Shown: positions 1-12,489 of the stretch, piece by piece | Numbering within the stretch: position 1 is the first letter of the stretch | Layout: each line of letters opens with the position of its first letter | Virus record (IMG/VR): IMGVR_UViG_2636415416_000016 | Source: a virus | Taxonomy: Duplodnaviria; Heunggongvirae; Uroviricota; Caudoviricetes | Direction: 5' to 3' (one strand) | DNA: 12,489 nucleotides | The notes under the pieces: generated by a model | Told to the model about the DNA's origin: nothing | Seen by the model: only the letters and a program-made list of their open reading frames with translations | Databases searched by the model: none | Position numbers and translations under genes: made by a program

Positions 1-516
1 TTAATTACGTAAGCGTTGATAAAAGAGTCGGATGCAGCCCAGTTTCACCATCGCCAGGTAATTTCTCGCCGTTTTGTCGTAACGCGTGGCGATGCGGCGA
101 TATTCTTTCAGCCGCCCAAAGCACCGTTCAACGACATTACGATTGCAGTACGCATCACGATCAAGCTGTGCACGTCCATCCGATGCCATTTTCTCATTTG
201 ACTTTCGGGGGATTACTGCCTTTATACCGTTATTTTTCAGCTCGTTGCGCAATGCGCGCCCTGAATACGCTTTATCAGCCAGTACCGCATGTCCACGGCG
301 TTTCATGCTGCCGTTCTGACGCTGAACGCCAATCCCGTCCAGAAGTCGTTGCGCGAACTGGCTTTCATGAGCTTGTCCGGGGCTTAGCACGATATTTAAC
401 GGGAGGCCACTTCCGTCTGTTGCCAGATGGATTTTGGTGCCAAAACCGCCGCGAGAGCGACCCAGCCCATTATCTCCGTCGATATCGGGATGTTTTTTTG
501 AGCACCGGCGGCACAT
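1..516 (-). CDS. IS5-family transposase OrfB (DDE catalytic part), probably made as an OrfAB fusion by -1 frameshift
   Basis: 171-codon frame overlapping OrfA by 121 nt in the -1 frame. C-terminal motif NVVERCFGRLKEYRRIATRYDK is typical of IS5-family DDE transposases. Stop TAA at 1-3. Confidence 0.6.
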   Translation of the reverse strand: MCRRCSKKHPDIDGDNGLGRSRGGFGTKIHLATDGSGLPLNIVLSPGQAHESQFAQRLLDGIGVQRQNGSMKRRGHAVLADKAYSGRALRNELKNNGIKAVIPRKSNEKMASDGRAQLDRDAYCNRNVVERCFGRLKEYRRIATRYDKTARNYLAMVKLGCIRLFYQRLRN

Positions 517-764
517 TTCAGCGCCCGGATATTACTGCCATCCAGCGCGGTGGCAGACCAGTCAATAAAGCCGTTTGCATCAAGTAGCGAAAGCAACCTG
601 TTGAAAATAATATTAATCACGCCTGACTTTGACCATCGGTTAAAGCGGTTATAAACAGTTTTCCATGACCCATATCGTTCGGGTAAATCGCGCCATGGTG
701 CACCGGAACATAACACCCAGAACATGCCATTGATGATTTTACGGTGCTCAAGCCCCGGCGACAT
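396..764 (-). CDS. IS5-family transposase OrfA (N-terminal DNA-binding part)
   Basis: ATG at 762-764 with an in-frame TAG directly upstream (768-770). Motif FWVLCSGAPWRDLPERYGSWKTVYNRFNRW is typical of the DUF4096-type N-terminus of IS5-family transposases. The N-terminus looks short compared with family members as I recall them, so the element may be 5'-truncated. Confidence 0.6.
   Translation of the reverse strand: MSPGLEHRKIINGMFWVLCSGAPWRDLPERYGSWKTVYNRFNRWSKSGVINIIFNRLLSLLDANGFIDWSATALDGSNIRALKCAAGAQKNIPISTEIMGWVALAAVLAPKSIWQQTEVASR
492..498 (-). other. candidate -1 programmed ribosomal frameshift heptamer A_AAA_AAC
   Basis: Minus strand reads GGT GCT CAA AAA AAC ATC in the OrfA frame. 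A -1 slip on A AAA AAC gives AAA AAA CAT CCC GAT = KKHPD, which is exactly the OrfB frame. Confidence 0.5.
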
Positions 765-1383
765 TACCTATACCCGGAACAACGGAACCAAGTTGCGCAC
801 CCGCTAAAGCGCCTGATGCCGCCCCACCAATACCACGCGCAAGACTGGATGGCTGCTGCGCCTGACCTGCACGAATGGCGCCAAGCCCCTGCAAGAGTTG
901 CCCGGTATTATTGGCGTAGTTTTGCCCTGCTGTTGCCTGCCCTGATGCCGCATTCATCCCGACATTTAGCAGGTTTCCATAATTTTGCATTTGCCCACTG
1001 AGCCAATTGTTATAAAGCATGGGCGCAATGGAAGATAACTGGTTACTGGTAGCTGTTGAGCCAAGCCCCCCGGTAGCTTCTGCTGAGACAAGGTTCTGAT
1101 AACGGGCCTGATCTGCCTGTGTTTTATATAAACCAGAACCAAAGAAATCATTCGCGGCTTTATTCTGCCCTTCCAGAGTCATCAGTCCTTGCAGTTGTTG
1201 TAAAGCAGGCAATCCGACTTCTGCATACGGCTTGAGATTATTCATCACCGTATTCCACTGCTCGCGCTGCAAATCAATTGCCTGCTGCTGGGCCTTCGCC
1301 TGAGCTTTAGAGGCACCACCATCACCGCCTTTTTCGTATACGGCACGATTGAGATGTTTATGAGCTATATGGGTAATTAACAT
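748..1383 (-). CDS. Gly/Gln/Ala/Asn-rich low-complexity protein with coiled-coil-like N-terminal segment; function unknown; 3' end lies inside the IS fragment (disrupted or chimeric C-terminus)
   Basis: ATG at 1381-1383 overlaps the upstream stop (ATGTTAA, 1377-1383), with AAGGAA about 9 nt upstream. Codon usage is coding-like throughout. The frame runs into IS sequence and ends at TGA 748-750, overlapping the transposase OrfA start. Confidence 0.5.
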   Translation of the reverse strand: MLITHIAHKHLNRAVYEKGGDGGASKAQAKAQQQAIDLQREQWNTVMNNLKPYAEVGLPALQQLQGLMTLEGQNKAANDFFGSGLYKTQADQARYQNLVSAEATGGLGSTATSNQLSSIAPMLYNNWLSGQMQNYGNLLNVGMNAASGQATAGQNYANNTGQLLQGLGAIRAGQAQQPSSLARGIGGAASGALAGAQLGSVVPGIGNVAGA

Positions 1384-1838
1384 TCGCTGAATTCCTTATA
1401 TTGTTGCCGAGTTAACTGATAAAGCGTTACGCCGACGGGTTTACCACATCTGATATAAGCATCATCAAGGTGACCAACACGGGTAGCGCCAAGCAAACGG
1501 ATAATTGCCCGTCCATATTTCGTGGTGTCAGGAACCATAGTGATGCTGTTAAGGAATGGTGAGTTTTCGAGAAGCCATTTGCAGAATAATCGATGCCCTT
1601 GCAGTGCATATTCACCACGGAATCCGGGGTCGTACACCGCATGGCATTCAACAACGCTATGCCAGAAGTTACGCACTTCATGAACGCCAGCCAGCACTAA
1701 TCCTTCGTAGATGCCGAGATATACCGCATCAGGCTTGATGTAGTACGAGTGCCCCGGCTCAACAATATTTTCGGTATTGCCTGGCTCGTTAAGAAAGGCC
1801 TGTAATCGCACAGGGTTATCAATAAATTTTAGTTCCAT
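1377..1838 (-). CDS. hypothetical protein, 153 aa
   Basis: ATG at 1836-1838, 16 nt after the stop of the 53-codon ORF. Stop TAA at 1377-1379 overlaps the next start. No family recognised by eye. Confidence 0.6.
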   Translation of the reverse strand: MELKFIDNPVRLQAFLNEPGNTENIVEPGHSYYIKPDAVYLGIYEGLVLAGVHEVRNFWHSVVECHAVYDPGFRGEYALQGHRLFCKWLLENSPFLNSITMVPDTTKYGRAIIRLLGATRVGHLDDAYIRCGKPVGVTLYQLTRQQYKEFSEC

Positions 1839-1854
1839 GCGATGCCATCCATTT

Positions 1855-2016
1855 TCACATACAGCCTGCCAGCGCCTTATCTATTAACCCTCGTGCAATT
1901 TCATGCAGAGTTGGCGCTACTCCAATTCCTGATTTTTTACGCTGCTCTTCCTGAATTTTCTTTATCGCTTCCATTTGCTTCTCACTTATCAATACCGGCT
2001 TTACTGAAATAGCCAT
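1855..2016 (-). CDS. small hypothetical protein, 53 aa (MAISVKPVLISEKQMEAIKKIQEEQRKKSGIGVAPTLHEIARGLIDKALAGCM); possible small DNA-binding regulator
   Basis: Below the length cutoff of the supplied ORF track. ATG at 2014-2016 is preceded by AAGGGGG (2021-2027) at 4-nt spacing; stop TGA at 1855-1857. AT-rich codons lower confidence. The strand-helix-helix pattern is only weakly ribbon-helix-helix-like. Confidence 0.35.
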   Translation of the reverse strand: MAISVKPVLISEKQMEAIKKIQEEQRKKSGIGVAPTLHEIARGLIDKALAGCM

Positions 2017-2111
2017 AACGCCCCCTTATAACTGTATAAAACAACAGTTATTATAGTTTCACAAATCGCAATATTCATCATCGTAATTGCAGAATATGAA
2101 ACAAATAGCAC

Positions 2112-2142
2112 AAAAAAATGCCACCGCTCAGTAGCTGGTGGC
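2112..2142 (-). terminator. rho-independent terminator for the minus-strand replication operon
   Basis: Minus strand reads GCCACC-A-GCT ACTG AGC-GGTGGC followed by A and TTTTTTT (2112-2118): a GC-rich 9-bp stem with one bulge, a 4-nt loop and a U7 tract. On the plus strand the A-run precedes the hairpin, so it is unidirectional. Confidence 0.5.
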
Positions 2143-2337
2143 GTCGTTCTGTGTGTCAGGTTTTGACAGGTTTTTTATGGACTCTAAAAACTATATTTAT
2201 GGTGTCGCATTACTCTTCACGGCAGGCGCTTTTCAGTTCTGCCCTTGCTTCTGGCTCCATTGGTAATTTGATTCGCGATCAGCTATGCGGATGGTTTGCT
2301 GAACAGGCATAACAACTTCTCAGAGGCTGTTTTTTGA

Positions 2338-2356
2338 ACTACGAAAATTTCGTAGT
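2338..2356. repeat. perfect palindrome ACTACGAAA-A-TTTCGTAGT (operator-like, core TACGA-N5-TCGTA)
   Basis: 9-bp arms around a single central base, read directly from the sequence. Confidence 0.55.
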
Positions 2357-2393
2357 GCTCACTTTCAAAAACGTCACGCCCTTGTACACAGGA

Positions 2394-2414
2394 TTTTACG
2401 AAAGTCTCGTAAAA
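2394..2414. repeat. inverted repeat TTTTACGA-AAGTC-TCGTAAAA (second TACGA-N5-TCGTA site)
   Basis: 8-bp arms with a 5-bp spacer. Shares the TACGA-N5-TCGTA core with the 2338-2356 site, centre to centre about 57 bp apart. Confidence 0.55.
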
Positions 2415-2462
2415 CACTCTCTGATGCCAGCCAGGTGTTGTGCGCATCAATTCAGTCACATT

Positions 2463-2600
2463 GTGTTGGTTCAAAATACCGTGTTGTTGGTTCAGTGTTG
2501 GTTCAAAATACCGTGTTGTTGGTTCAGTGTTGGTTCAATAAAAAGAATAAAATCCTTATAAAACAATACCATTTACAAATTGAACCAACTGAACCAACAC
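2463..2600. repeat. iteron array, candidate replication origin: five direct copies of GTGTTGGTTCA, AT-rich spacer, two inverted copies
   Basis: Direct copies at 2463-2473, 2481-2494, 2495-2505, 2513-2526 and 2527-2537 form a 32-bp unit repeated twice plus a partial copy. A 43-bp spacer of about 80 percent A+T (2538-2580) follows. Inverted copies TGAACCAAC and TGAACCAACAC lie at 2581-2589 and 2590-2600. The array starts 24 bp after the primase stop. Confidence 0.6.
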
Positions 2601-2623
2601 CTTTTCTACGCACATGAAGAAGC

Positions 2624-5383
2624 TCATTCTTCAGATGAGTTATAATCTCCTGGCTGGTAATTGAGTACATAAACGTTTATTTGTCGTCCCTGAATACGTG
2701 GTGATTTTCTTTGGTATCCACGACCGCTGTTTGGTGGGGTTAGCATCCCGGCTTTTTTCAACACTTCAGCAAACTGTTTTGCGTTGAAACCACATGCGAT
2801 CTCCTTTTCAAATGTGGCCGGGAATGTGTAGAAAATCATTGGGCTTTCGTCATGTTCTCCACGCTGACGGTATCCGGCTAAATCTTTGATGGGCAAATCT
2901 GCCGGGCTGTATGGAAATGGTGCAAAACGGCTAAGCCCATAGGCATTAAGAAATGCCTCCGTTTGTTCAATAATCTGCTGATGTTCTTTGTTACCTGTGC
3001 CGAACTCGCGCAACCATGCGTTATAGCTGTGCTGTATCGCATCACGGCATGTCTGAGCATCCCAGCCTGTTACAACCTCGCCTAACAGCAATGCGGCCTC
3101 CAGAATGGCAAATCGCGCGGCTACACGGTGAACCTGCTCACCATAATCGGATGGGATCAGGTTTCTCCATCTGCTTTCGCAATCACGAACGGTTTTAATA
3201 GCCTGTTGCTGGTGGTCTGCCAGCCATTTAATCCACTCACGCCCGGCTGCGCCGTGGTGATGCTGGTAAGCGTCTTTCAGTGCGTCTGCGTGCTGTTTTC
3301 CGTTCTGGTAATCGTGAAAGCGTACTGCTTTACTCAACGGAATATTCAGCAGTCGCACCAGTTGCCCGGCTTTGGTTTTTCGCCCGGAAGTAGCGATAAA
3401 TGTTTCTAAATCCATTTCTCCGGTGCTGATTGCCACTGTACGCCAGCGTTTTAGATCCCGGTTTCCACCATCTTTAGCGCCTTGCAGTTTCCCTACACCG
3501 TTAAATAACGCATAGGCAGACTGTGAAACGCTGACAGGATCAGCGCCCTGACCAACTTCATCAAGCGGCATTAGTCCGTCATTGTGGGCGGCGGCCTCAT
3601 TTGCCAGCCCCAGCGCGGTTCCGTACCACGTCAGCCGCAGTAAATCAGGGTTGCCGTATAAGCTGCTCGCCACGTTTGCCGTGGTGGTCTTACCTGCGCT
3701 CGACTGCTCATAGAAATGAATGCCGAACCCGTCAGCGCCCACCAGCCCAATCAATGGCGCTGCCAGTGCTGCGCCGATCCCGGTCATCATTGAATAGTTA
3801 CCAAAGGCCAGACGCGCCACGTTATCACGCCAGCTTTTCGCGCTCCCTGAGACGGTATATCCGGCTGCGGCTGAGCTTCTCCCGCTGAACAGCACAGGAT
3901 TTTCAGGTGTTCCGATGATTTCCCCATCAGGCATGATGTACGCTCCGCATTGCCAGACAGTGGCATGAGCAACACGCCACAATTCACGAGAGCCACTGCG
4001 TTGTAGCCAGTCTGCCAGTATTGCTCTGAGGCTGCTTTTGGTCGTGACATTTACCCCACCAGCTTTAAGTGTGCGCCATCCTTCACGTTCACCAATATCA
4101 GCCAGTGGAATGGCAGCGGTTGTCGGCGTTTCAGAACCAAACGACAGCCAGCGAAGAATGAGATACTGGTCTTTATCGTCTCTGCCAGTACCGATAACGC
4201 TTAACGGAGAACATAACCAGCTTTCGTTATTGATGATTTCTCCACTCTGGCTGTCAGCTCTCGGAGATACCCAATAAATACCATCCTCGCGGCTTTCTAT
4301 TCTTGGTTTCAGTGGGTCGGTATCCATAACCTTAAAATCGCTTCCCTCAATGGTCTGTGGCTCCTGTTTCACGCCATTACCCTGTGGTTGGTACATTGAC
4401 TTATTGAACGCTTCTGTGGCGCATTTAATGCCGTGTTTTTGGTGGTAATCATTCCAGTCTGCTTTGTGATCTGTCGGGGGTAATGCCACCCATCCAGAAA
4501 CAGATAAAGCTGCTTTTTCTGCTGCTATTCTCCCCGTGTTTTGTCTTCCTTCGCTGTGGTCGTTATCCGCAGCAATGATGATTTGTGCTGAAGGAAATTT
4601 ATCCCGCAGTACCTGGGCGACATATAACAGGTTCCCGGCATCAATCGCCGCCACTGTCAGCGCCTCTGGACGAATTAAATGGGCAGATAATGCCGTTGCC
4701 AGCCCTTCTGCGATTAAGATGCTCTGTGTTGTTTCTGGCGCGTTTATGGCGTGATATGCCCCCCGCTTTGCTGAACCTGTCAGGAGTCTTTTTTCACCAT
4801 GTGATGTAATAGTCTGTGCTGCTGTGACTGCGCCGGATTTATCCACCAGCGCCAGCAACAGAGATCCATCGGGCAACACGGGGAATGTAAAATCACCTAC
4901 CCCTTTCGCAACCAGATAATCAGATTTGCCGTTTACAGCCTTTCTGCGCATGTCATCAAACTGACGGGAAAACGTATCCCGTCTTTGTTGTTCGTCCTTC
5001 TCTGCCCTTTTCAGGCGCTCCTGTTCGCGTCGCTGGCGCTCGGTTTCCAGTTGTTCCCGTTTCTGGCTGGTGGCTTCTGGTGTTTCCGTTGTCCGGTAAT
5101 CAATACCCAGAACATCAGCGGCAAGAAGCGCCGCCTCTGTTGTGTCGCAGTTATTTACGCGTTTAATTAAATCCAGCCCATCACCAGCGCCGCACTGATT
5201 ACAGATGAAGCTACCGCGCCCGTTGTCATCGAACCGGAATCGATCTTTGCCCCCACATGCAGGGCAGGGAGCATGACGGCGCGGAGAGTCAGGGACATTT
5301 ATGTTCAGGCAGCCCAGCACATGAGGCCAGTTGTTTTCAGACGCACTGATAACCTGACGGATAAGATCAATGTTTCGCATCAC
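2624..5383 (-). CDS. replication primase-helicase: N-terminal primase zinc ribbon, TOPRIM domain, C-terminal P-loop NTPase (DUF927-like)
   Basis: 919-codon ORF. N-terminus has CPACGGKDRFRFDDNGRGSFICNQCGAGDG (primase zinc-ribbon signature); central IIIAADNDH is a TOPRIM acidic motif; C-terminal half has Walker A SSAGKTT and Walker B LMPLDEV. Start is GTG 5381-5383 or ATG 5378-5380, overlapping the upstream gene stop. Stop TGA at 2624-2626. Confidence 0.85.
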   Translation of the reverse strand: MMRNIDLIRQVISASENNWPHVLGCLNINVPDSPRRHAPCPACGGKDRFRFDDNGRGSFICNQCGAGDGLDLIKRVNNCDTTEAALLAADVLGIDYRTTETPEATSQKREQLETERQRREQERLKRAEKDEQQRRDTFSRQFDDMRRKAVNGKSDYLVAKGVGDFTFPVLPDGSLLLALVDKSGAVTAAQTITSHGEKRLLTGSAKRGAYHAINAPETTQSILIAEGLATALSAHLIRPEALTVAAIDAGNLLYVAQVLRDKFPSAQIIIAADNDHSEGRQNTGRIAAEKAALSVSGWVALPPTDHKADWNDYHQKHGIKCATEAFNKSMYQPQGNGVKQEPQTIEGSDFKVMDTDPLKPRIESREDGIYWVSPRADSQSGEIINNESWLCSPLSVIGTGRDDKDQYLILRWLSFGSETPTTAAIPLADIGEREGWRTLKAGGVNVTTKSSLRAILADWLQRSGSRELWRVAHATVWQCGAYIMPDGEIIGTPENPVLFSGRSSAAAGYTVSGSAKSWRDNVARLAFGNYSMMTGIGAALAAPLIGLVGADGFGIHFYEQSSAGKTTTANVASSLYGNPDLLRLTWYGTALGLANEAAAHNDGLMPLDEVGQGADPVSVSQSAYALFNGVGKLQGAKDGGNRDLKRWRTVAISTGEMDLETFIATSGRKTKAGQLVRLLNIPLSKAVRFHDYQNGKQHADALKDAYQHHHGAAGREWIKWLADHQQQAIKTVRDCESRWRNLIPSDYGEQVHRVAARFAILEAALLLGEVVTGWDAQTCRDAIQHSYNAWLREFGTGNKEHQQIIEQTEAFLNAYGLSRFAPFPYSPADLPIKDLAGYRQRGEHDESPMIFYTFPATFEKEIACGFNAKQFAEVLKKAGMLTPPNSGRGYQRKSPRIQGRQINVYVLNYQPGDYNSSEE

Positions 5384-5738
5384 CGTACCCCACGTGGTCT
5401 ATAGCGTTTGCGATATGGCTAACCAGCATCTGCCACTTGGTTATTCCGTAATCAGTCAGCATGCCATCATTGTTTAGCCACATATCAAATTCAGCGGTTG
5501 TCGCAAGTTTCCACTTATCGCCGTGGACAGTCCTCATTGCTGGGTACATGAATGCGCAAATCAGATCACAAACATCTGACGGCTTCAGAGATGTAGTAAT
5601 GGTGCGTCCCTCTGGCGTCTGAATTGCCATTTTCTCTTCACCAGTAGAATGAAGGTTATGAATCCACACAGCACCAGCAATCTTTGCCACCTGCTCTCCG
5701 ATTGCGGAGCTAAGCGCCATTTCTGCATTTTCACGCAT
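5367..5738 (-). CDS. hypothetical protein, 123 aa
   Basis: ATG at 5736-5738 preceded by GGGAGGT; 8-nt stop-start overlap ATGCGTGA with the upstream gene. The 3' end overlaps the primase start by 14-17 nt. Confidence 0.6.
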   Translation of the reverse strand: MRENAEMALSSAIGEQVAKIAGAVWIHNLHSTGEEKMAIQTPEGRTITTSLKPSDVCDLICAFMYPAMRTVHGDKWKLATTAEFDMWLNNDGMLTDYGITKWQMLVSHIANAIDHVGYGDAKH

Positions 5739-6072
5739 GAGAACCTCCCGCTACAGTTGCGCCCATGTCATTAACCATGCTTTGCCATATCTCACGCCCG
5801 ACGTCAGTCAATCCGTCCTTAGTGACGCAACGCTCAAGAAGCTCGATCCCCACGGTTTCCCACTGCGGGTAGAACACTTTCATGGCTGCCAGTGTGTAGC
5901 TATCGATCAGGCTGCGAACGCCTTTTACTCCATTAACGATTTCCACACGTACGGCCTCGCCGTCCGCATCAACCATGAAATAGTCCCCGCCGCTGGTGGA
6001 GGTAATGTGGTTATACAGTGCCGACGCATACTTATTTGCCAGCGCATTCAGTCGGAAATTTTTAGTAATCAT
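5731..6072 (-). CDS. hypothetical protein, 113 aa
   Basis: ATG at 6070-6072 with GGAG-containing Shine-Dalgarno sequence; 10-nt gap after the upstream stop. Coding-like composition. Confidence 0.6.
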   Translation of the reverse strand: MITKNFRLNALANKYASALYNHITSTSGGDYFMVDADGEAVRVEIVNGVKGVRSLIDSYTLAAMKVFYPQWETVGIELLERCVTKDGLTDVGREIWQSMVNDMGATVAGGSHA

Positions 6073-6082
6073 GGCTCCATCC

Positions 6083-6685
6083 TCAGTGCGTCACTGGTTC
6101 CGCTGGCATGCCGTTTTCATTCAGTTCAGCTATAAAGCTGTTGTGAAGTTCAGCAAGCGTTTCACGACCAAATGGAGTCAGTGCTCCTTGTTCCACATCC
6201 ATCATGGCTCTGTAGAAAATGATGGCGCGTTCTGTGCCAGACTCGATGCCAAAACGTTCTATCATCGCTCCCTCAATGTTGTTTGCCATAGCGAGGCGCT
6301 CTGCTACTGGATACAGCGGCATGGCGACGATGCCGTTGGAATAAACAGCCACTTCGGAAGGATTGCCAGTATCATCAATGATGCTGACAGTGCCGTTTTC
6401 CTCTCTCATTTCCAGCATGAATACTGTTGCGATCAGCCATCTCCACATAATGACGTTATGCTGTGATGTGTAATCGAAATATCCCTGGTTGCCGCCATCG
6501 GCAATAGCGAGATGTATTGACATACCTTCATCTGGTTTATCGTCATAATCCCCGGCATCCAGACGATTTACGGCATCAATATATGAGACGGCCTCAACGC
6601 GTTCTGTCATGCCATCGTTGCTGCGGTACATGATGTTTACGCCGTCAGGCGTTGCTTCTGTATGGAAAGTTAAGAAATTATTCAT
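6083..6685 (-). CDS. hypothetical protein, 200 aa
   Basis: ATG at 6683-6685 is preferred over the TTG at 6790 used by the ORF track. It overlaps the upstream stop as ATGAATAA and has GAGG about 9 nt upstream. The longer N-terminal extension would overlap the well-formed upstream gene. Confidence 0.55.
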   Translation of the reverse strand: MNNFLTFHTEATPDGVNIMYRSNDGMTERVEAVSYIDAVNRLDAGDYDDKPDEGMSIHLAIADGGNQGYFDYTSQHNVIMWRWLIATVFMLEMREENGTVSIIDDTGNPSEVAVYSNGIVAMPLYPVAERLAMANNIEGAMIERFGIESGTERAIIFYRAMMDVEQGALTPFGRETLAELHNSFIAELNENGMPAEPVTH

Positions 6686-6899
6686 GTTTCGCCTCGCCTG
6701 AATGATTCTGTAACTCATATTTGCCCAACAATTCGTCCGCTTCCTGAATAGCTTCTGGTACGCCATTGAGCAGTGACATAACCGCGCCAATCATTAACTT
6801 GTCTCTGTTGCTGGGGCTGGCCCCTTCAAGCCAGAACCCTAAAACAGTCTGAACCTGTTCGATGCGACATTGCGCTTCAATGAGCTGGATGTTGGTCAT
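6678..6899 (-). CDS. hypothetical small protein, 73 aa
   Basis: ATG at 6897-6899 in an ATGA stop-start overlap with the upstream gene; stop TAA at 6678-6680. Confidence 0.55.
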   Translation of the reverse strand: MTNIQLIEAQCRIEQVQTVLGFWLEGASPSNRDKLMIGAVMSLLNGVPEAIQEADELLGKYELQNHSGEAKHE

Positions 6900-7159
6900 T
6901 TCGCACTCTCCACATCGATTAAACTGATATCTATCAGGGAGGTAACTTTTTGTAGCCAGCTATTGATTACTGTCGCCTGTTCCCCGCCCACCGAGGGAAC
7001 AATCTCATTCATCACATGAACCAGACCTGTGCGCGCTCTGGTAAGCCGTTCAGTCGCGCAATCTGCGGGAGTGAATGTGTCTGGATATGGCTCTTCACGC
7101 CCCAGCAATGATTCAATTTCCAGCTCACACGGATGACGATAAATTAAGTTGATATTCAT
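6896..7159 (-). CDS. hypothetical small protein, 87 aa
   Basis: ATG at 7157-7159 preceded by GGGGGTG; ATGA overlap with the upstream stop. Confidence 0.55.
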   Translation of the reverse strand: MNINLIYRHPCELEIESLLGREEPYPDTFTPADCATERLTRARTGLVHVMNEIVPSVGGEQATVINSWLQKVTSLIDISLIDVESAK

Positions 7160-7350
7160 TTTTCACCCCCAAGAATTACCAGCTCGGCACGGGCATCGTT
7201 AACCAAAGATGAGCACGCTTTAATCGCATCCACGACATCAGTAGCGTCCATTTCTTCAGCCGAAAGACTGACAGCAACCAGGACAGCCGCTGCTTGCTCG
7301 ATTAATTGAAGTGCGGACGTAAGGCGAGGGGTATTAATTGAGTTATTCAT
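7156..7350 (-). CDS. hypothetical small protein, 64 aa
   Basis: ATG at 7348-7350 is preferred over the GTG at 7407 used by the ORF track. ATGAATAA overlap with the upstream stop at 7343-7345; G-rich Shine-Dalgarno-like stretch upstream. Confidence 0.5.
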   Translation of the reverse strand: MNNSINTPRLTSALQLIEQAAAVLVAVSLSAEEMDATDVVDAIKACSSLVNDARAELVILGGEK

Positions 7351-7561
7351 TGGTTGCCCCCGTTTTTCCTGGCATTTCGCCACCTTCCAGCAGGAAATGA
7401 ACGTCACGAACGGCGAGATCCAATATCGCGAGTAACGCCTTCAGTCTTTCGTCTCGTGAGGGAGAGTTGCTCACCAGAATGTCGTTAATCACTTCTGTCA
7501 GTGTGATGATCTGGCTTGTGCGTTCGAGGGGATCCATATGCACATCGTAGGTTTTAATCAT
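7343..7561 (-). CDS. hypothetical small protein, 72 aa ([17 protein letters not shown]...); in frame with, and possibly the C-terminal part of, the long 7343-8410 open frame
   Basis: ATG at 7559-7561 preceded by GGAGGTG at about 5 nt; overlaps the stop of the 7554-7748 gene as ATGATTAA. Coding-like codon usage. Confidence 0.4.
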   Translation of the reverse strand: MIKTYDVHMDPLERTSQIITLTEVINDILVSNSPSRDERLKALLAILDLAVRDVHFLLEGGEMPGKTGATNE

Positions 7562-8410
7562 GTGCCACCTCCATGCGGATACGACCAGCAAAAAAGCAGA
7601 TGTGATCGCGCACCAGAGAACGGCGAGCATCGCGTTCAGACTCGGCAGCAATATGATGAATTTTGGCGGTAATTGTCGGGCAATCGCGGCGAACTGCGGC
7701 GATAATCCAGATAAATTGCGGTTTTTGGGTAGTGGTAGTAGCCAGCATGTGGCAGCCTCCTTGTACTGGGAGTTCTTCCCACCACCGGAGCTGCGAAACT
7801 CGCTGGTGGTGGACTGAACAGAGTTCGCAGTACCGGCGTACAAGGAAACCGGCCAGCCTTTCGGCTGCCCTGTCCAGCCCACCATAATTTTGCAAGCGAC
7901 GCGGATTATAACCGCATCACTGAAAAAAGTGTGAGTCTGGCTAACGGCACAAAAAAAGACGCTCGGCGCGTCATGTGTCGCCTCGTACATTTCCGGGCTG
8001 CGAAACCCGGCACCCGTTTTATGAGGTGCCTTATAACCATAAACCGTGTTGCCGCATAACGGCAAGCTCTTTTTTATGGACTCCGAAAACTCACTATTGG
8101 AAGCACCAGATGCACAATACATCGCGCTCATTTCGTTAACGTCGCGCGTGTGGACGAAGGTTTTTGTGGAGTCACTACGCGAGCAGAGAAAGCCATCTAC
8201 GACCAGAAATTCTCTGGCGCAGCCGCCGACCTTCTCAACGCTAACACCATCGACCGTAATTTCTGACATAGTTAAGGCATTCGCTCCCACCACCAGAAAA
8301 TGATAAACTTTGCTTGTATCTGCTGTATTAATGCCAGACTTTGCTGTCATATTGCTGGATTTTGGCGACATACCAGCCAGTGAAAATATCTTCTTCTGGA
8401 CGGTTAGCAT
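7343..8410 (-). CDS. long open frame (355 codons); only the first 220 or so codons (8410 to about 7750) look coding; possibly Ash-family-like (memory only); no in-frame stop before 7343
   Basis: ATG at 8408-8410 preceded by GGAGGT at 6 nt; overlaps the upstream stop (ATGCTAA). Codon usage is good from 8410 to about 7750, poor from 7748 to 7561 where the 64-aa gene occupies another frame, then good again from 7561. The true 3' end is ambiguous. Confidence 0.45.
7554..7748 (-). CDS. small protein, 64 aa ([43 protein letters not shown]...); resembles, from memory only, Icd-like host cell division inhibitor proteins of P4-like elements
   Basis: ATG at 7746-7748 preceded by AAGGAGG (7756-7762) at 7-nt spacing. 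Codon usage in this frame is strongly E. coli-like (all Arg as CGC/CGT, Leu as CTG), whereas the overlapping long frame uses CTA/TTA/CGA/AGG/ATA here. The TTG start at 7895 used by the ORF track is rejected. Confidence 0.5.
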   Translation of the reverse strand: MLATTTTQKPQFIWIIAAVRRDCPTITAKIHHIAAESERDARRSLVRDHICFFAGRIRMEVAHD

Positions 8411-8586
8411 TTGTTAACCTCCGCGAACTCCTTCATGAAGCGCGCCAGCGGTTGTACGCATGGCGATTGATACCCGTCGCGATAAAACGTCACTCGGTTG
8501 TGAGACACGCTTTCGACAGTAACGAGTGCTCCGTGGGCATCCTTGTAGCGTTTTTGAGGTTGTGGTGTTCCTGTCGGCTTAAACAT
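8404..8586 (-). CDS. hypothetical small protein, 60 aa ([60 protein letters not shown])
   Basis: ATG at 8584-8586 preceded by GGAGGTGG; overlaps the antirepressor-like gene stop as ATGTTTAA. The longer N-terminal extension in the ORF track is rejected because it overlaps the upstream gene. Confidence 0.55.
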   Translation of the reverse strand: MFKPTGTPQPQKRYKDAHGALVTVESVSHNRVTFYRDGYQSPCVQPLARFMKEFAEVNKC

Positions 8587-9412
8587 GGACCACCTCCAGA
8601 CGCTTAGCGAGCCAGCGTTGCGACAGGCGGGTGAGTTCTCCTTTGCGCTGCTCATATTCCATGCCCATATCAATTAACGTGATATTGGTGCTTTCGAGAT
8701 ATGAGAGGTGCTCAAGTTGTTCTGCGTTCATATGGTCGCGAGGTTCGCCAGAATAGCCATTTATCCGCGCCCACTGCTTAGCAGTTAGCCCACCAAGAAC
8801 GATACGAGAAATCATATTGCTCTCGTTTGTGTAGTGGTGTTGCTGCGTCGTTTTCCCCTGCTCGGCACGGGCCATATTCAGCGCATCGCACATTGGCTTA
8901 AAGTTGTTTGCGGCACTGATACGGGCTTTTAGCTGGCGACGATAGCGGGCGGCGATTTCAGGAACGCTACGCTGTAATTCTTCCTCGCACTGGATGAAAT
9001 AACGGCGGATAGCGCGACCCTGATCATTGCGTTCGATCATTGCCAGTTCTTTCGCCATTCCGACACTTAACAGATAGTCTTTGCCGGGTCTGCCAGACTG
9101 CTTAATCTTTCTGTAAGCCGCGCCATTCGGGCTTTTCCCCAAATTTGGGGAAATAGTTTTATGGACTGAGTAATCGTGCCCAATGGTGAAGTCATATTCA
9201 GAGATGCGATCAGTGATCCATGTAGAGAAGTCTTTTCCCACGCCCAACGCTTTGTGTAACGCTTTTGCGCTAACAATATTGGTTTCACGCCCACCGATAT
9301 GACCAGGAATAACCGGGACAATTGCGGCAAATTCATTACCGTTAATTGTGCTCAGAGAGGCGTTCAGATGAGGGGCGGCCTCAGAAATTAATCTGCTTTT
9401 TTCGATGTTCAT
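8579..9412 (-). CDS. phage antirepressor-like protein (AntA/AntB-type N-terminal domain), 277 aa
   Basis: ATG at 9410-9412 with GGAG about 8 nt upstream. N-terminal region (KDFSTWITDRISEY ... GRPGKDYLLSVGMAKELAMIERNDQGRAIRRYFIQCEEEL) matches the AntA/AntB antirepressor pattern as I recall it. The C-terminal domain is unassigned. Confidence 0.55.
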   Translation of the reverse strand: MNIEKSRLISEAAPHLNASLSTINGNEFAAIVPVIPGHIGGRETNIVSAKALHKALGVGKDFSTWITDRISEYDFTIGHDYSVHKTISPNLGKSPNGAAYRKIKQSGRPGKDYLLSVGMAKELAMIERNDQGRAIRRYFIQCEEELQRSVPEIAARYRRQLKARISAANNFKPMCDALNMARAEQGKTTQQHHYTNESNMISRIVLGGLTAKQWARINGYSGEPRDHMNAEQLEHLSYLESTNITLIDMGMEYEQRKGELTRLSQRWLAKRLEVVHV

Positions 9413-9424
9413 TTTCAGTCTCCG

Positions 9425-9856
9425 TTAAGCGGCGTTAAACGCGTCCGGGTAGAGTTTCAGAATGTCGGCAATTTCCTGCTGAGAAAGTCCGTTGTGATCA
9501 TTTATGTTCGCAAGATGGTTAATATGAGTGATCACTTTCAGAACATCACCACGGCAGGAGAAACGGTAGCGAAGGTGTGTTCCGATACCATCAGGATTCT
9601 TTTCGTCGATACGCTCCAGAGTGATTCCAAGCTGGCGTTCTAACTCTGTTGCATAGTTACGACCAGAAGACAGACGGCAGTAGCGAAGAATGTCATTTTC
9701 TGTCCATCCCTCTATACCAGTACGCAGCATATAGACTCTGGCACGATGCTTTTTCGGTGTGCGCTTTGGTGCTTGAAGGGATTTTGTAAGGGGCGTAACA
9801 TCAGATACGCGAATATCTGAATTAGCCGCCTGTAATGGGCGGTTTTTCTTATTCAT
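9425..9856 (-). CDS. hypothetical protein, 143 aa, basic N-terminus; possible DNA-binding protein
   Basis: ATG at 9854-9856 overlaps the alpA stop as TAATG. No family recognised by eye. Confidence 0.55.
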   Translation of the reverse strand: MNKKNRPLQAANSDIRVSDVTPLTKSLQAPKRTPKKHRARVYMLRTGIEGWTENDILRYCRLSSGRNYATELERQLGITLERIDEKNPDGIGTHLRYRFSCRGDVLKVITHINHLANINDHNGLSQQEIADILKLYPDAFNAA

Positions 9857-10053
9857 TACGCTACCTCGCCACGCGACTCAGCGATGCGCTGATTAATCCA
9901 TTCTTCAATTTCACTTTCAATAAACGCAATTGATCGGCTTCCAATCTTTACAGATTGAGGGAATCGCTGTTCTTTGATGAGCCGATAAATCCACGCTTTG
10001 CTGTAACCAGTACGGCGTTGAACCTCAGAAAGACGAATAAATGATTGAGACAT
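9856..10053 (-). CDS. alpA: AlpA-family phage transcriptional regulator (Vis/AlpA-like helix-turn-helix), 65 aa
   Basis: MSQSFIRLSEVQRRTGYSKAWIYRLIKEQRFPQSVKIGSRSIAFIESEIEEWINQRI fits the AlpA pattern (RL..V...TG.S...IY.L.....FP...K.G.RS..W...EI.EW). ATG at 10051-10053 preceded by AGGAG at 5 nt. It is the first gene of the long operon. Confidence 0.8.
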   Translation of the reverse strand: MSQSFIRLSEVQRRTGYSKAWIYRLIKEQRFPQSVKIGSRSIAFIESEIEEWINQRIAESRGEVA

Positions 10054-10171
10054 GTTTACTCCTATATTCTGTCATCTTCTTTAATGGACATCAGTAGACA
10101 GAAAGGAGATTAAACAAACCGGTGAATGGGTGATAGCGGATAAAAATAAAATATTTTTTTGAGAAGATTAT

Positions 10172-10206
10172 CCGCTTTGAAATACACAGTAGCGTATTCA
10201 AAGCGG
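10172..10206. repeat. inverted repeat CCGCTTTGAA-N15-TTCAAAGCGG between the acidic cargo gene and alpA; possible terminator or operator
   Basis: 10-bp perfect arms at 10172-10181 and 10197-10206, flanked by A/T runs. On the minus strand no U-tract follows immediately, so it is not a canonical terminator. Confidence 0.4.
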
Positions 10207-10250
10207 AAATCGCGAAATTTACTTAAAACGTTTACGTAGGATTTTGCTTG

Positions 10251-11132
10251 CTATAAATCTCTACTCATTAAATCAGATATTTTTATCAAGCTCATTTCTC
10301 TGTCTTTGTTTACATAAAGCTGAAGCAAGCGGGTGTATCTCTCGCTTATAGATTCAAGTGCAAAAGGCTTTATTGATTCCTTAATAGCCTGCGTATCTTT
10401 CGGATCATCACTAAAAACCAAGGCAGAAATCATCGGATTGCTCACTTCCTTACCTGACTTCTCACCCCAAATCAGCAGATCAACAATAGGTATCACTCTA
10501 TTAGATATCAACTTCTGAAGGGTCTTTAATCCAATCCTTTTCTGAGCGACATGCTCTCTCTCTGGTACTTTTAACTCTTTTCGCCATAGAGGTAGAAGGT
10601 GAGTCAGGCTGGTAATAATTTCGTCATCAGTGGCGTCATCTAAATCTATAGAAACGAGTATGATGTTAGGGGAACAATTACTTAGGTTTCCAGTAACACT
10701 CGCAAGCATAGCGTTTGCCTTGAGGTAGCAATCCTCTTCGTCTCTTTTAAAAAAGCCTTGATCTATCGATGAGAAAGAGTACATGGCCAGCTCTGAAAAT
10801 GTTACTGGACTAACCCCCATAGCTGAAGATAATGAGGGAAGATCATCGTACTCATTTCTTAATGATGGGGCTTCATCATTTACTTTGCGAATAAATTCTT
10901 CGACCTCTTCCTCTTCTTCATTGAGAATGGTTAGGTTAGGATCGCCCGAAAAAATCCTTTCATATTTTATATCGTACTCTTCTTTGAATATAGCAGTGTC
11001 ATCTTTTGCATGACGCAATAAAAAATCGCGCCACTCTAATTCTTGAATCAAGTCCGGCAAGGTTAAATCATTTAAAAATTCATAATTACTAATATCAAAC
11101 CATGCTAAATCTTGTTTTTTGGCTCTCACCAT
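10251..11132 (-). CDS. highly acidic hypothetical protein, 293 aa, encoded by a low-GC gene; cargo between integrase and alpA
   Basis: ATG at 11130-11132, stop TAG at 10251-10253. Sampled stretches are about 37-43 percent G+C against more than 50 percent in neighbouring genes. Asp/Glu greatly outnumber Lys/Arg, with an EEEEEVEE run. No P-loop, nuclease or transmembrane motifs seen by eye. Confidence 0.65.
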   Translation of the reverse strand: MVRAKKQDLAWFDISNYEFLNDLTLPDLIQELEWRDFLLRHAKDDTAIFKEEYDIKYERIFSGDPNLTILNEEEEEVEEFIRKVNDEAPSLRNEYDDLPSLSSAMGVSPVTFSELAMYSFSSIDQGFFKRDEEDCYLKANAMLASVTGNLSNCSPNIILVSIDLDDATDDEIITSLTHLLPLWRKELKVPEREHVAQKRIGLKTLQKLISNRVIPIVDLLIWGEKSGKEVSNPMISALVFSDDPKDTQAIKESIKPFALESISERYTRLLQLYVNKDREMSLIKISDLMSRDL

Positions 11133-11274
11133 ACGCCACCCCGCGCCCCTAATTCTGACGGCTATGCCAGCCCGTAGGGGTGTACGGGTTTTCGGGGATC
11201 AGCCTAGACATAGCCTATTCTTTGTTCGTCTACATAAGTCTACTACCATTGCTTAACACGGTCTATTCATACAG

Positions 11275-12489
11275 TTAAGCTCGTTTCCCAAACGAACCAT
11301 GAACAACGTTCTCCTCCTTCTCCAGCGCATCCATATAGTCGGCATACCATTGAAGCATCTCCCGCCTTCCATCCAGATATTGCGCATGGTTGTATGTGCC
11401 ACGAATTGAGTTCTTATCAACGTGAGCGAGCTGCGTTTCTATCCACGCGGTGTTATAGCCCTGCTCATGCAAAATCGTGCTCATAGTGTGCCGGAACCCA
11501 TGACCAGTTACACGTCCAGCGTAGCCAATGCGCTTAAACACTTGGTTTATGCTGGCCTCACTCATTGTTTTCCTTGGATCATTGCGCCCGGGAAACATAA
11601 GAGGGTAATTGCCTGTTATTTCTCTAATCTTCCCAATAAGCGAAAGAGCCTGATCAGACAATGGCACAATATGAGGCCGCCGCATTTTCATACGTGAAGC
11701 GGGTATCTCCCAGATAGCCTTGTTGAAATCAATTTCATCCCATAATGCGCCACGTAGTTCGCCAGTCCGCAAGCCGGTGATAATCAGTAGACGAGCCGCC
11801 ATAACAACCAATGCGCTTCTTGAGTAACTGGACAATGCCTTGAAAAAATCAGGTAATTCTTTAGCTGTAAGGAAAGGGTAATGATTAGATTCATGGCCTT
11901 GCATCGCGCTAGTAAGGTCTGGTGCAGGGTTATACTCTGCGCGACCAGTGACTATTGCATAGCGGAAAACTTCCCCGCACCGCTGCCTCACTTTTTTGGC
12001 TTTTTCTGTAGCACCGCGCCCCTCGATGCGCCGCAGCACATTCAGAAGTTCAAGTGGTTTGATTTCGGCGATTGGTTTTTTGCCAATGTAAGGGAACACA
12101 TCTTTGTTGAAGGCTTCGAGGATGTCTGAAGCATAACCAGCAGACCATTTTTTTAATTTGCTGCTGTGCCACTCAAGGGCAATATCTTTGAAGGTGTTGT
12201 TTAACTGCGTTTCCCGGGCAATCTTTTCCTCTCGTTTCGCTTCCATCGGATCGATACCACCAGCGATACCTCTTTTCGCATCTTCACGTTTTGCCCGAGC
12301 ATCGGCTAGAGTAACCTCAGGATACACACCTAGTGCCAATAGCTTCTCTTTACCAGCTACACGATATTTAAGTCGCCAGTATTTACCTCCATTAGGTTTT
12401 ACCAAGAGATACAAACCGCCACCATCGGCCAGCTTGTAAGCCTTCTCTTTTGGCTTGGCTGTGTCTATTTGACGGGCATTGAGTTTCAC
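11275..12489 (-). CDS. int: P4-type tyrosine integrase (site-specific recombinase)
   Basis: N-terminus KLNARQIDTAKPKEKAYKLADGGGLYLLVKPNGGKYWRLKYR is the classic P4-integrase arm-binding signature. C-terminal catalytic region has HGFRH and the RGTYNHAQY tyrosine motif. Stop TAA at 11275-11277. The frame starts at the window edge (GTG 12487-12489), so the true start may lie just beyond the window. Confidence 0.9.
   Translation of the reverse strand: MKLNARQIDTAKPKEKAYKLADGGGLYLLVKPNGGKYWRLKYRVAGKEKLLALGVYPEVTLADARAKREDAKRGIAGGIDPMEAKREEKIARETQLNNTFKDIALEWHSSKLKKWSAGYASDILEAFNKDVFPYIGKKPIAEIKPLELLNVLRRIEGRGATEKAKKVRQRCGEVFRYAIVTGRAEYNPAPDLTSAMQGHESNHYPFLTAKELPDFFKALSSYSRSALVVMAARLLIITGLRTGELRGALWDEIDFNKAIWEIPASRMKMRRPHIVPLSDQALSLIGKIREITGNYPLMFPGRNDPRKTMSEASINQVFKRIGYAGRVTGHGFRHTMSTILHEQGYNTAWIETQLAHVDKNSIRGTYNHAQYLDGRREMLQWYADYMDALEKEENVVHGSFGKRA

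Follow-up and report, generated by a model that had tools for sequence, protein, structure and literature searches.

A truncated EcCIMP1-type phage-inducible chromosomal island of Escherichia coli with a P22-type terS fragment as a candidate packaging site

The stretch of DNA analysed here, a 12,489-nt virus record of IMG/VR (IMGVR_UViG_2636415416_000016; the whole of it is called the window below), very probably carries at positions 751-12489 the 11.7 kb on the integrase side of an EcCIMP1-type phage-inducible chromosomal island (PICI), a satellite of P22-like podoviruses of about 20 kb located at the 3' end of the tRNA gene thrW. The EcCIMP1-type island is already known, having been published and experimentally validated in 2025. 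Within the window copy lies a 107-bp fragment of a P22-type terS gene, which, we tentatively propose, serves the EcCIMP1 family as its functional pac site and is matched to one rare P22-type TerS allele. This reading, with the consequences for helpers, lateral transduction and DNA ejection considered at the end, is built on sequence comparison, and we regard it as plausible but short of probable.

EcCIMP1 was described in E. coli MP1 (Pick, Stadel and Raivio, ISME J 2025, PMC11773190; GenBank OR778291) as an element of 19,963 bp at tRNA-Thr between proA and yagU, with the core TCCTATTATC and a gene content of int, AlpA, an antirepressor, Ash, a primase, 'DNA transfer' genes and PerC, and in phylogeny it stands far from other PICIs of Gram-negative bacteria (PMC11773190). 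It excises and circularises only in the presence of the P22-like prophage Kapi1, and more so upon induction of Kapi1, which turns on alpA; to excise, circularise and be transferred in helper particles it needs Int and AlpA, its master regulator (PMC11773190). Transfer by Kapi1 is very rare (about 4.8e3 transducing particles/ml), a Kapi1-like prophage was present in only 2 of the 21 EcCIMP1 strains, and the packaging mechanism could not be determined, the terS fragment not being mentioned in that paper (PMC11773190).

The nucleotide alignment of the window to EcCIMP1 at the MP1 locus showed 98.2% identity over 751-10047 and 98.3% over 11299-12489, and the alignment gap at 10048-11298, which is the DUF6387 region, is the sole internal difference between the two copies. 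In the set of complete E. coli genomes used throughout (n=5,426), positions 751-12489 were found as a block of 98-99.8% identity in 160 genomes (at least 80% of the window covered), and parts of them in about 1,900. The window element and EcCIMP1 share the order int, alpA, a hypothetical gene, antA, DUF4222, the Ash/Icd region, six small open reading frames (ORFs), primase, a 53-aa ORF, gp14-like and gp7-like genes, as well as the integrase and, in the intact relatives of the window element, the thrW site and the core of the attachment site (att). They differ in that the window has a DUF6387 gene in the gap between int and alpA, where EcCIMP1 has none, and in that the window copy is truncated in gp7.

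The feature on which the packaging proposal rests is the following:
8156-8262, plus strand: P22-type terS (gene 3) fragment, putative satellite pac, with the 22-mer GAAGGTTTTTGTGGAGTCACTA at 8156-8177; 87% identity to P22 gene 3

Similarity to P22 gene 3 sets in precisely where P22-pbi has its annotated 22-bp pac site. A search of the window for the canonical P22 pac 22-mer with up to 3 mismatches gave no match, because the satellite 22-mer agrees with the canonical one at only 16 of 22 positions (6 differing positions); P22-type terS carries several 22-mer alleles, among them a P22/APC_JM3.2 type and a Dewey type. By exact-pattern scan, GAAGGTTTTTGTGGAGTCACTA was found in three IMG/VR contigs (L094, L099 and L101), within full-length terS genes of 162-164 aa. 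The satellite fragment is identical to the allele of these contigs at 101 of 107 positions and at all 22 positions of the 22-mer, and the homology starts within a few bases of the 22-mer, whereas other terS alleles match it at 16-17 of 22 positions. ORFs of TerL and portal size lie downstream of terS in L094, the one contig checked. Among satellites that are up to 15% divergent nearby, the 22-mer varies at a single G/T position. About 484 of the complete E. coli genomes carry the fragment, annotated in some of them by the Prokaryotic Genome Annotation Pipeline (PGAP) as a 90-bp 'DNA-packaging protein' pseudogene, and about 251 carry a P22-type terS-terL pair. Downstream of the 22-mer (8178-8262), comparison with L003, L088, L089 and phage Dewey (L108) showed patches in the satellites that are identical to other phage terS alleles, and GAGCGGAAGACATCATC in the UPEC132-type satellites is phage Dewey sequence. 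The allele-like patches suggest recurrent gene conversion with the terS of P22-type helpers, and hence repeated exchange between satellites and such helpers. We found no literature linking P22 pac to a satellite, and EcCIMP1 packaging was found described nowhere beyond the 2025 paper.

The terS fragment may instead be a mere recombination scar in an EcCIMP1-type PICI that is packaged via its post-primase genes or by non-specific headful initiation, which we consider a serious possibility, if a rather doubtful one. Several observations are in keeping with a scar and weigh against a functional pac. In only 1 of the 5,426 genomes, that of E. coli ST131 MB1159, was the exactly matching phage allele found in a prophage; this is the main weakness of the pac claim. 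A tblastn of 66 Enterobacterales loci detected a terS fragment at the corresponding place only in the E. coli-type locus L010 and in no other genus, and in L039 and L014 only the RNA-immunity region matches phages. Kapi1, whose TerS is an unrelated 142-aa protein, still transfers EcCIMP1, at very low frequency and without a cognate pac/TerS pair, and the neighbouring RNA genes constrain the region and could explain part of its conservation. Against the wider reading it counts further that helper dependence is carried over by analogy from the 98%-identical EcCIMP1, that the missing distal part could lie elsewhere in the source genome, and that the 9-nt complementarity between the C4 RNA and icd described below is statistically weak, about 0.3 such matches being expected by chance in the region searched. 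On the other side, a scar accounts poorly for a fragment that starts so close to the pac 22-mer, for a 22-mer that matches one natural allele perfectly and the others far less well, and for the near invariance of this 22-mer while the part behind it is an allele-like mosaic with other phage terS genes. The extremely inefficient transfer by Kapi1 is as expected of a non-cognate terminase, and carrying a helper packaging site is an established strategy of PICIs: EcCICFT073 carries that of its helper and its cos sites are functional (PMC6092414), and a PICI embedded in its helper, with 258 bp in common with it at cos, was proposed to do likewise.

If the fragment is a pac site, the unrelated TerS of Kapi1 may explain the very low published transfer of EcCIMP1, and we infer from the terS alleles that the efficient helpers would be phages with a P22-type TerS. 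Kapi1 itself was considered as carrier of the cognate terS/pac and was rejected, as no similarity to the fragment was detected even at word size 7 and over the whole of EcCIMP1.

The other features of the window are as follows:
1-755, minus strand: ISSfl7-like IS5-family insertion sequence (IS), 5'-truncated, with orfB at 1-516 and an orfA remnant to about 755; Pfam DDE_Tnp_1 and DUF4096 (from profile position 27); not part of the satellite
748-1383, minus strand: P22 gp7-like DNA-ejection protein gene, 3'-truncated by the IS; Pfam P22_gp7, E=1.3e-69; phrog_598 'DNA ejection'
1377-1838, minus strand: P22 gp14-like gene, head morphogenesis / ejection-protein assembly; DUF2824, E=1.4e-61; phrog_651
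1855-2016, minus strand: 53-aa ORF heading the module downstream of the origin; PGAP WP_001018524.1; no Pfam or PHROG match
2120-2135, minus strand: intrinsic terminator closing the alpA-to-primase transcription unit; stem-loop and T-run
2463-2600, no strand: iteron array, putative replication origin; repeat search and Tandem Repeats Finder (TRF)
2624-5383, minus strand: primase-helicase (Pri-Rep), 919 aa; Zn_Ribbon_Prim, Toprim_3, DUF927; phrog_1139 DNA primase, E=4e-176
5367-5738, 5731-6072, 6083-6685, 6678-6899, 6896-7159 and 7156-7350, minus strand: six small conserved ORFs; only PHROGs of unknown function match
7343-8410, minus strand: 'Ash family' ORF, 355 aa; Pfam Phage_ASH
7554-7748, minus strand: Icd-like ORF; PGAP annotation at the corresponding position of MP1 and of two further genomes
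7802-7889, minus strand: C4-type antisense RNA (P1 c4 / P4 CI class); Rfam RF01695, 81.1 bits (gathering 45), E=5e-15, full length
7952-8029, minus strand: isrK-like small RNA with its own terminator at 7958-7972; Rfam RF01394, 69 bits (gathering 50), E=2e-13, full length
8404-8586, minus strand: DUF4222 protein gene; Pfam DUF4222, E=2e-24
8579-9412, minus strand: AntA/AntB-type antirepressor gene; Pfam AntA, E=1e-21; phrog_5817 anti-repressor Ant
9425-9856, minus strand: conserved hypothetical gene of 143 aa; an ORF that adjoins alpA across the family
9856-10053, minus strand: AlpA regulator; Pfam Phage_AlpA, E=9e-20
10251-11132, minus strand: DUF6387 accessory gene of low GC (0.37-0.40); Pfam DUF6387, E=4e-38
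11147-11214, minus strand: int-alpA RNA motif; Rfam RF02996, 46.7 bits (gathering 35.8)
11275-12489, minus strand: P4-type tyrosine integrase; Arm-DNA-bind_3, Phage_int_M, Phage_integrase; 98% identity to EcCIMP1 int

Nearly all real genes lie on the minus strand, and the layout is that described for Gram-negative PICIs (Fillol-Salom 2018) as far as sequence can tell: int is found at one end, followed by alpA, which heads the main operon and is co-oriented with the downstream genes, and the primase/replicase and its origin come directly downstream (2624-5383 and 2463-2600). Genes for autonomous particles and lysis are absent, with the caveat that the gp14-like and gp7-like genes and the terS fragment are present; Gram-negative PICIs are known to carry some late genes. 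The initial annotation, made from the letters alone, had already proposed a P4-type integrase and a primase-helicase with adjacent iterons, and both are borne out by the domain matches and by the repeat array directly downstream of the primase stop codon. Its single operon headed by AlpA holds insofar as alpA leads abutting or overlapping co-oriented ORFs down to the primase, but two RNA genes and an internal terminator lie inside that unit. Likewise, no ORF of the window matched capsid, portal, terminase, tail or lysis genes in Pfam or PHROGs, as it had stated for capsid, terminase and lysis genes, but the P22-type virion-related sequence of the satellite, namely the gp14 homologue, the truncated gp7 homologue and the terS fragment, had been overlooked, as had the C4 and isrK RNA genes. 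From these gp14 and gp7 genes and the terS fragment the helper type is identified as P22-like podoviruses, and together with the RNA genes they indicate how regulation and packaging are likely to work.

The double label 'PICI / P4-like satellite' given at first can be kept in its first half only, in view of the identity of about 98% to EcCIMP1. The core of P4-like satellites (Moura de Sousa and Rocha 2022) is present as integrase, AlpA and a Zn-ribbon/Toprim primase whose helicase half is DUF927, but Sid, Psu and Delta/Ogr were matched by no ORF of the window in Pfam or PHROGs and are annotated in no distal part of the intact relatives, and because of their absence the strict P4-like label does not fit. 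A strict P4-like satellite, which would exploit P2-like helpers and redirect capsid size through Sid, Psu and Delta, is thus highly improbable here, even though the integrase, AlpA, the primase-helicase with its nearby iterons and the leader-derived small-RNA immunity region with its 'Ash' ORF, a hallmark of P4, are all shared and the antirepressor could parallel P4 epsilon. In P4 itself cI is an RNA of the C4/CI class, the 'Ash' ORF overlaps this RNA, and the genome is about 11.6 kb, as against about 20 kb for the EcCIMP1 type. All phage-derived sequences of the satellite are P22-type and none is P2-type, the proven helper is a P22-like podovirus, not a P2-like phage, and there is no sign of capsid-size redirection.

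With EcCICFT073 and further Gram-negative PICIs (Fillol-Salom et al. 2018, PMC6092414) the island shares the int-alpA-pri/rep-ori layout, the lack of a terS gene of its own and a copy, putative in the window element, of a helper packaging site, and packaging as multimers in full-size heads is counted as a further shared trait. The difference lies in the helpers, which are lambdoid cos phages for those PICIs, whereas the phage-derived sequence of the window consists of ejection genes and a putative pac, both P22-type. An Rpp-like packaging-redirection protein was not identified in the window element.

That the island is a decayed P22-like prophage, that is, a Lederbergvirus remnant at thrW, is already largely refuted and very unlikely: the P22-type gp14 and gp7 homologues and terS fragment (with gp20 and gp16 in intact relatives), the use of thrW also as a P22-type att site, with a 46-nt thrW core flanking the element in EC26, the integrase related to that of Kapi1 (49%) and the first label of the MP1 authors, an incomplete prophage, speak for it, but the backbone int-alpA-antA-C4-primase-iterons is unlike a lambdoid or P22 early region, no intact copy has capsid, portal, scaffold, large terminase, tail or lysis genes, the intact copies are uniformly about 20 kb with a short att repeat of their own, this architecture recurs under another integrase at a second chromosomal position, and helper-dependent excision and transfer were shown for EcCIMP1. 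A contiguous terS-terL-portal-scaffold-coat-tail operon, as in a P22 prophage, is not found; only the 107-bp terS fragment and gp14/gp7 (plus gp20/gp16 in intact copies) are present. The intact relatives extend about 8 kb past the IS junction without capsid or terminase genes, so that the contiguous structural genes or missing att repeats which the initial annotation had named as refuting a satellite were not encountered.

The P22-type genes are better read as part of the EcCIMP1-type PICI. In intact copies the att repeats enclose the 53-aa ORF, gp14, gp7, gp20 and gp16, all of which come after the origin, and the gp14-like product of the window is 84% identical in amino acids to Kapi1_055. 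Related elements with the same backbone and a different integrase are found at yicC instead of thrW; of these, E597 carries all four ejection genes, and SFE8 is without gp14 and gp7. The idea that the ejection genes are debris of a P22-like prophage sharing thrW was rejected, since they lie inside the att repeats and travel with the backbone to yicC under the other integrase; they are therefore real satellite cargo. Among 66 primase relatives in other Enterobacterales, the backbone of int, alpA, the 143-aa ORF, AntA, DUF4222, Icd and primase is widespread, and P22-type ejection genes are confined to the E. coli type and one Leclercia element, a distribution that points to a lineage-specific acquisition. 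Downstream of the primase, many Enterobacterales relatives (loci L011-L072) have homologues of the 53-aa ORF, which head a variable accessory module; in E. coli this module consists of the P22-type ejection genes.

The left end of the window copy is cut by an IS fragment, as had been noticed from the sequence. Over positions 1-755 the window shares 99.7% identity with an ISSfl7-like IS5-family element whose intact, frameshifted transposase gene (L106) measures 845 nt; the window matches 754 nt of it and lacks about 91 nt of the transposase 5' end together with the adjacent inverted repeat. By junction alignment, the IS/gp7 junction falls inside the transposase coding region and has a few bases of microhomology. 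This is therefore a true IS fragment, and the junction is the end-point of a deletion rather than of a simple insertion. The satellite boundary lies at about 751-756; the region first delimited as 765-12489 stands as a satellite, its true start being slightly further left. A few Shigella-like E. coli genomes have as many as 36 copies of this ISSfl7-like IS, which also occurs on virulence plasmids beside virK. The IS/gp7 junction itself was found in no complete E. coli genome of the collection, so a Shigella or EIEC-type genome may be the origin of the window.

A complete EcCIMP1-like element of about 20 kb has gp20, gp16, alpA_1, PerC and the distal att, and the window copy, in which these are missing, is a truncated member of the type. 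The deletion has removed the distal 8 kb or so, comprising the last 14 codons of gp7, gp20, gp16, alpA_1 (a second AlpA), PerC, a pRiA4b-ORF3 gene and the distal att; the gp7-like product has 211 aa in the window as against 225 aa in intact elements (a 678-nt gene in L001, L003 and L005). The suspicion that mobility is compromised is thus strengthened, and judging from the lost att the copy is probably immobile and no longer able to excise precisely. Int, alpA, the RNA switch region, the origin and the pac fragment appear intact; in-situ replication and in-situ headful initiation towards the thrW-proAB side by this truncated copy are conceivable.

A tRNA/tmRNA scan of the window found none. 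The check for a tRNA end and a far-end direct repeat proposed earlier was run on intact relatives, and both were found: tRNA-Thr is adjacent to int in L003-L006 and L008, and thrW would lie about 166 bp past the right end of the window. Of the att copies, neither falls within the window, and the distal one has probably been deleted. At simple loci int is about 166 bp from thrW next to proA, and the element spans about 19.7 kb before reaching a truncated LysR gene, which adjoins paoD/yagU. In Combat13F7 (L005) the direct repeat reads ATGGTGCCGATAATAGGA in thrW and ATGGTGATAATAGGA at the distal end, with 19.7 kb between them, and the published EcCIMP1 core is the reverse complement of GATAATAGGA found here. 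In UPEC132 and MP1 the satellite stands in tandem with an older vat island, at the start of which stands a degraded integrase copy of the same kind. In E. coli EC26 (L001 20717-20930) only a 46-nt 3' piece of thrW lies beside the satellite int, followed by another island and the end of a lambdoid prophage. The thrW gene accumulates tandem arrays of elements with att cores of different length, 10-17 nt for this satellite and 46 nt for the neighbour.

The 'Ash family protein' ORF of 355 aa probably encodes no protein; in its place are an isrK-like RNA, a C4 RNA and an Icd-like gene. The Phage_ASH match covers ORF residues 124-232 (nt 7715-8041) and coincides with the isrK and C4 genes, and the PGAP call of this ORF varies among near-identical elements from 355 aa to short or partial pseudogenes, MP1 having a 'host cell division inhibitor Icd-like protein' instead. 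The sequence TCCTTGTAC (7838-7846), contained in the unpaired loop of the second C4 hairpin, is perfectly complementary to GTACAAGGA (7758-7766), which is the Shine-Dalgarno region of icd, located 10 nt upstream of its ATG (7748); because the 9-nt match is weak statistically, the pairing of C4 with the icd site is something we only infer. In the immI system of P1 and P7 (c4-icd-ant), c4 blocks the translation of icd and, by polarity, of the downstream genes, and P4 CI acts alike. By analogy, C4, isrK and Icd would make up an antisense RNA switch of the P1 immI / P4 CI type. As in immI, C4 is followed downstream by an Icd-like ORF with a ribosome-binding site complementary to a C4 loop, and the operon includes an antirepressor; unlike in immI, this antirepressor is placed upstream of C4, replication genes come downstream of icd, following the logic of P4, and C4 is preceded by an isrK-like RNA.

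The iteron TGAACCAAC was found by repeat search in five direct copies at 2463-2538 and two inverted ones at 2579-2600, and TRF described the units as a 32-bp tandem (period 32, 2.4 copies, 100% match). The iteron copy number varies among near-identical elements, the window having one 32-bp unit more than Combat13F7 (L005). The DUF927 primase-helicase is replaced in E. coli MDR_56 (L009 1-290) by a DUF5906 (D5/P4-alpha-like) protein in an otherwise syntenic element; such a swap, seen in some syntenic elements, means that the replication module is exchangeable within the family. The same six small ORFs are annotated in all relatives. The gap between int and alpA (10054-11274) is a cargo slot, which holds the DUF6387 gene here, preceded by the int-alpA RNA motif, is empty in EcCIMP1 and holds a different gene of 316 aa in the yicC-site relatives L088 and L089. 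No meaningful PADLOC match to a known defence system was obtained in the window, including the DUF6387 gene and the small ORFs, which agrees with EcCIMP1, where neither PADLOC nor DefenseFinder found any (PMC11773190). The satellite integrase (11275-12489) is 49% identical in protein to that of Kapi1 (L007 38126-39274).

Taken together, a working model may be proposed for the EcCIMP1-type PICI. In quiescence, a C4-type RNA derived from the operon leader would pair with the ribosome-binding site of the Icd-like ORF, and C4 and the isrK-like terminator would, as in P1 immI and P4 CI, keep the replication segment from icd to primase silent for as long as transcription of the operon is not strong. 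Upon induction, the element would be replicated by the primase-helicase from the iteron origin just downstream, and the AntA antirepressor may antagonise the helper repressor, analogous to the action of P4 epsilon on P2. The TerS/TerL of the helper would then recognise the pac mimic, the 107-bp terS copy, on concatemers and fill a full-size head by the headful mechanism. The P22 headful is about 43.5 kb, and about 2.2 unit lengths of the 19.7-20 kb element would be accommodated per head; because about two unit lengths fit a full-size head, no capsid-size redirection would be needed, and none is encoded. The satellite would also supply its own ejection-protein set of gp14, gp7, gp20 and gp16.

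The island itself is of little weight, being one more, broken copy of a satellite family present in hundreds of E. coli genomes. Of wider use is that the 'Ash family protein' call of PGAP and Pfam hides here two RNA genes of a probable P1/P4-type antisense switch, and that the P22-type ejection genes belong to the satellite as genuine cargo and not to a neighbouring prophage. The candidate pac site would fill the packaging gap left by the EcCIMP1 authors and predicts which phages are efficient helpers. If the proposal is true, the natural high-frequency helpers would be Lederbergviruses with the matching TerS allele and not Kapi1, which would account for the published near-background transfer. 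In truncated copies that keep pac and lack the distal att, such as the present one, helper terminase could start headful packaging in situ and carry the thrW-proAB side, amounting to satellite-driven lateral transduction, and with its gp14/7/20/16 set the satellite would be the first known to bring DNA-ejection machinery of its own.

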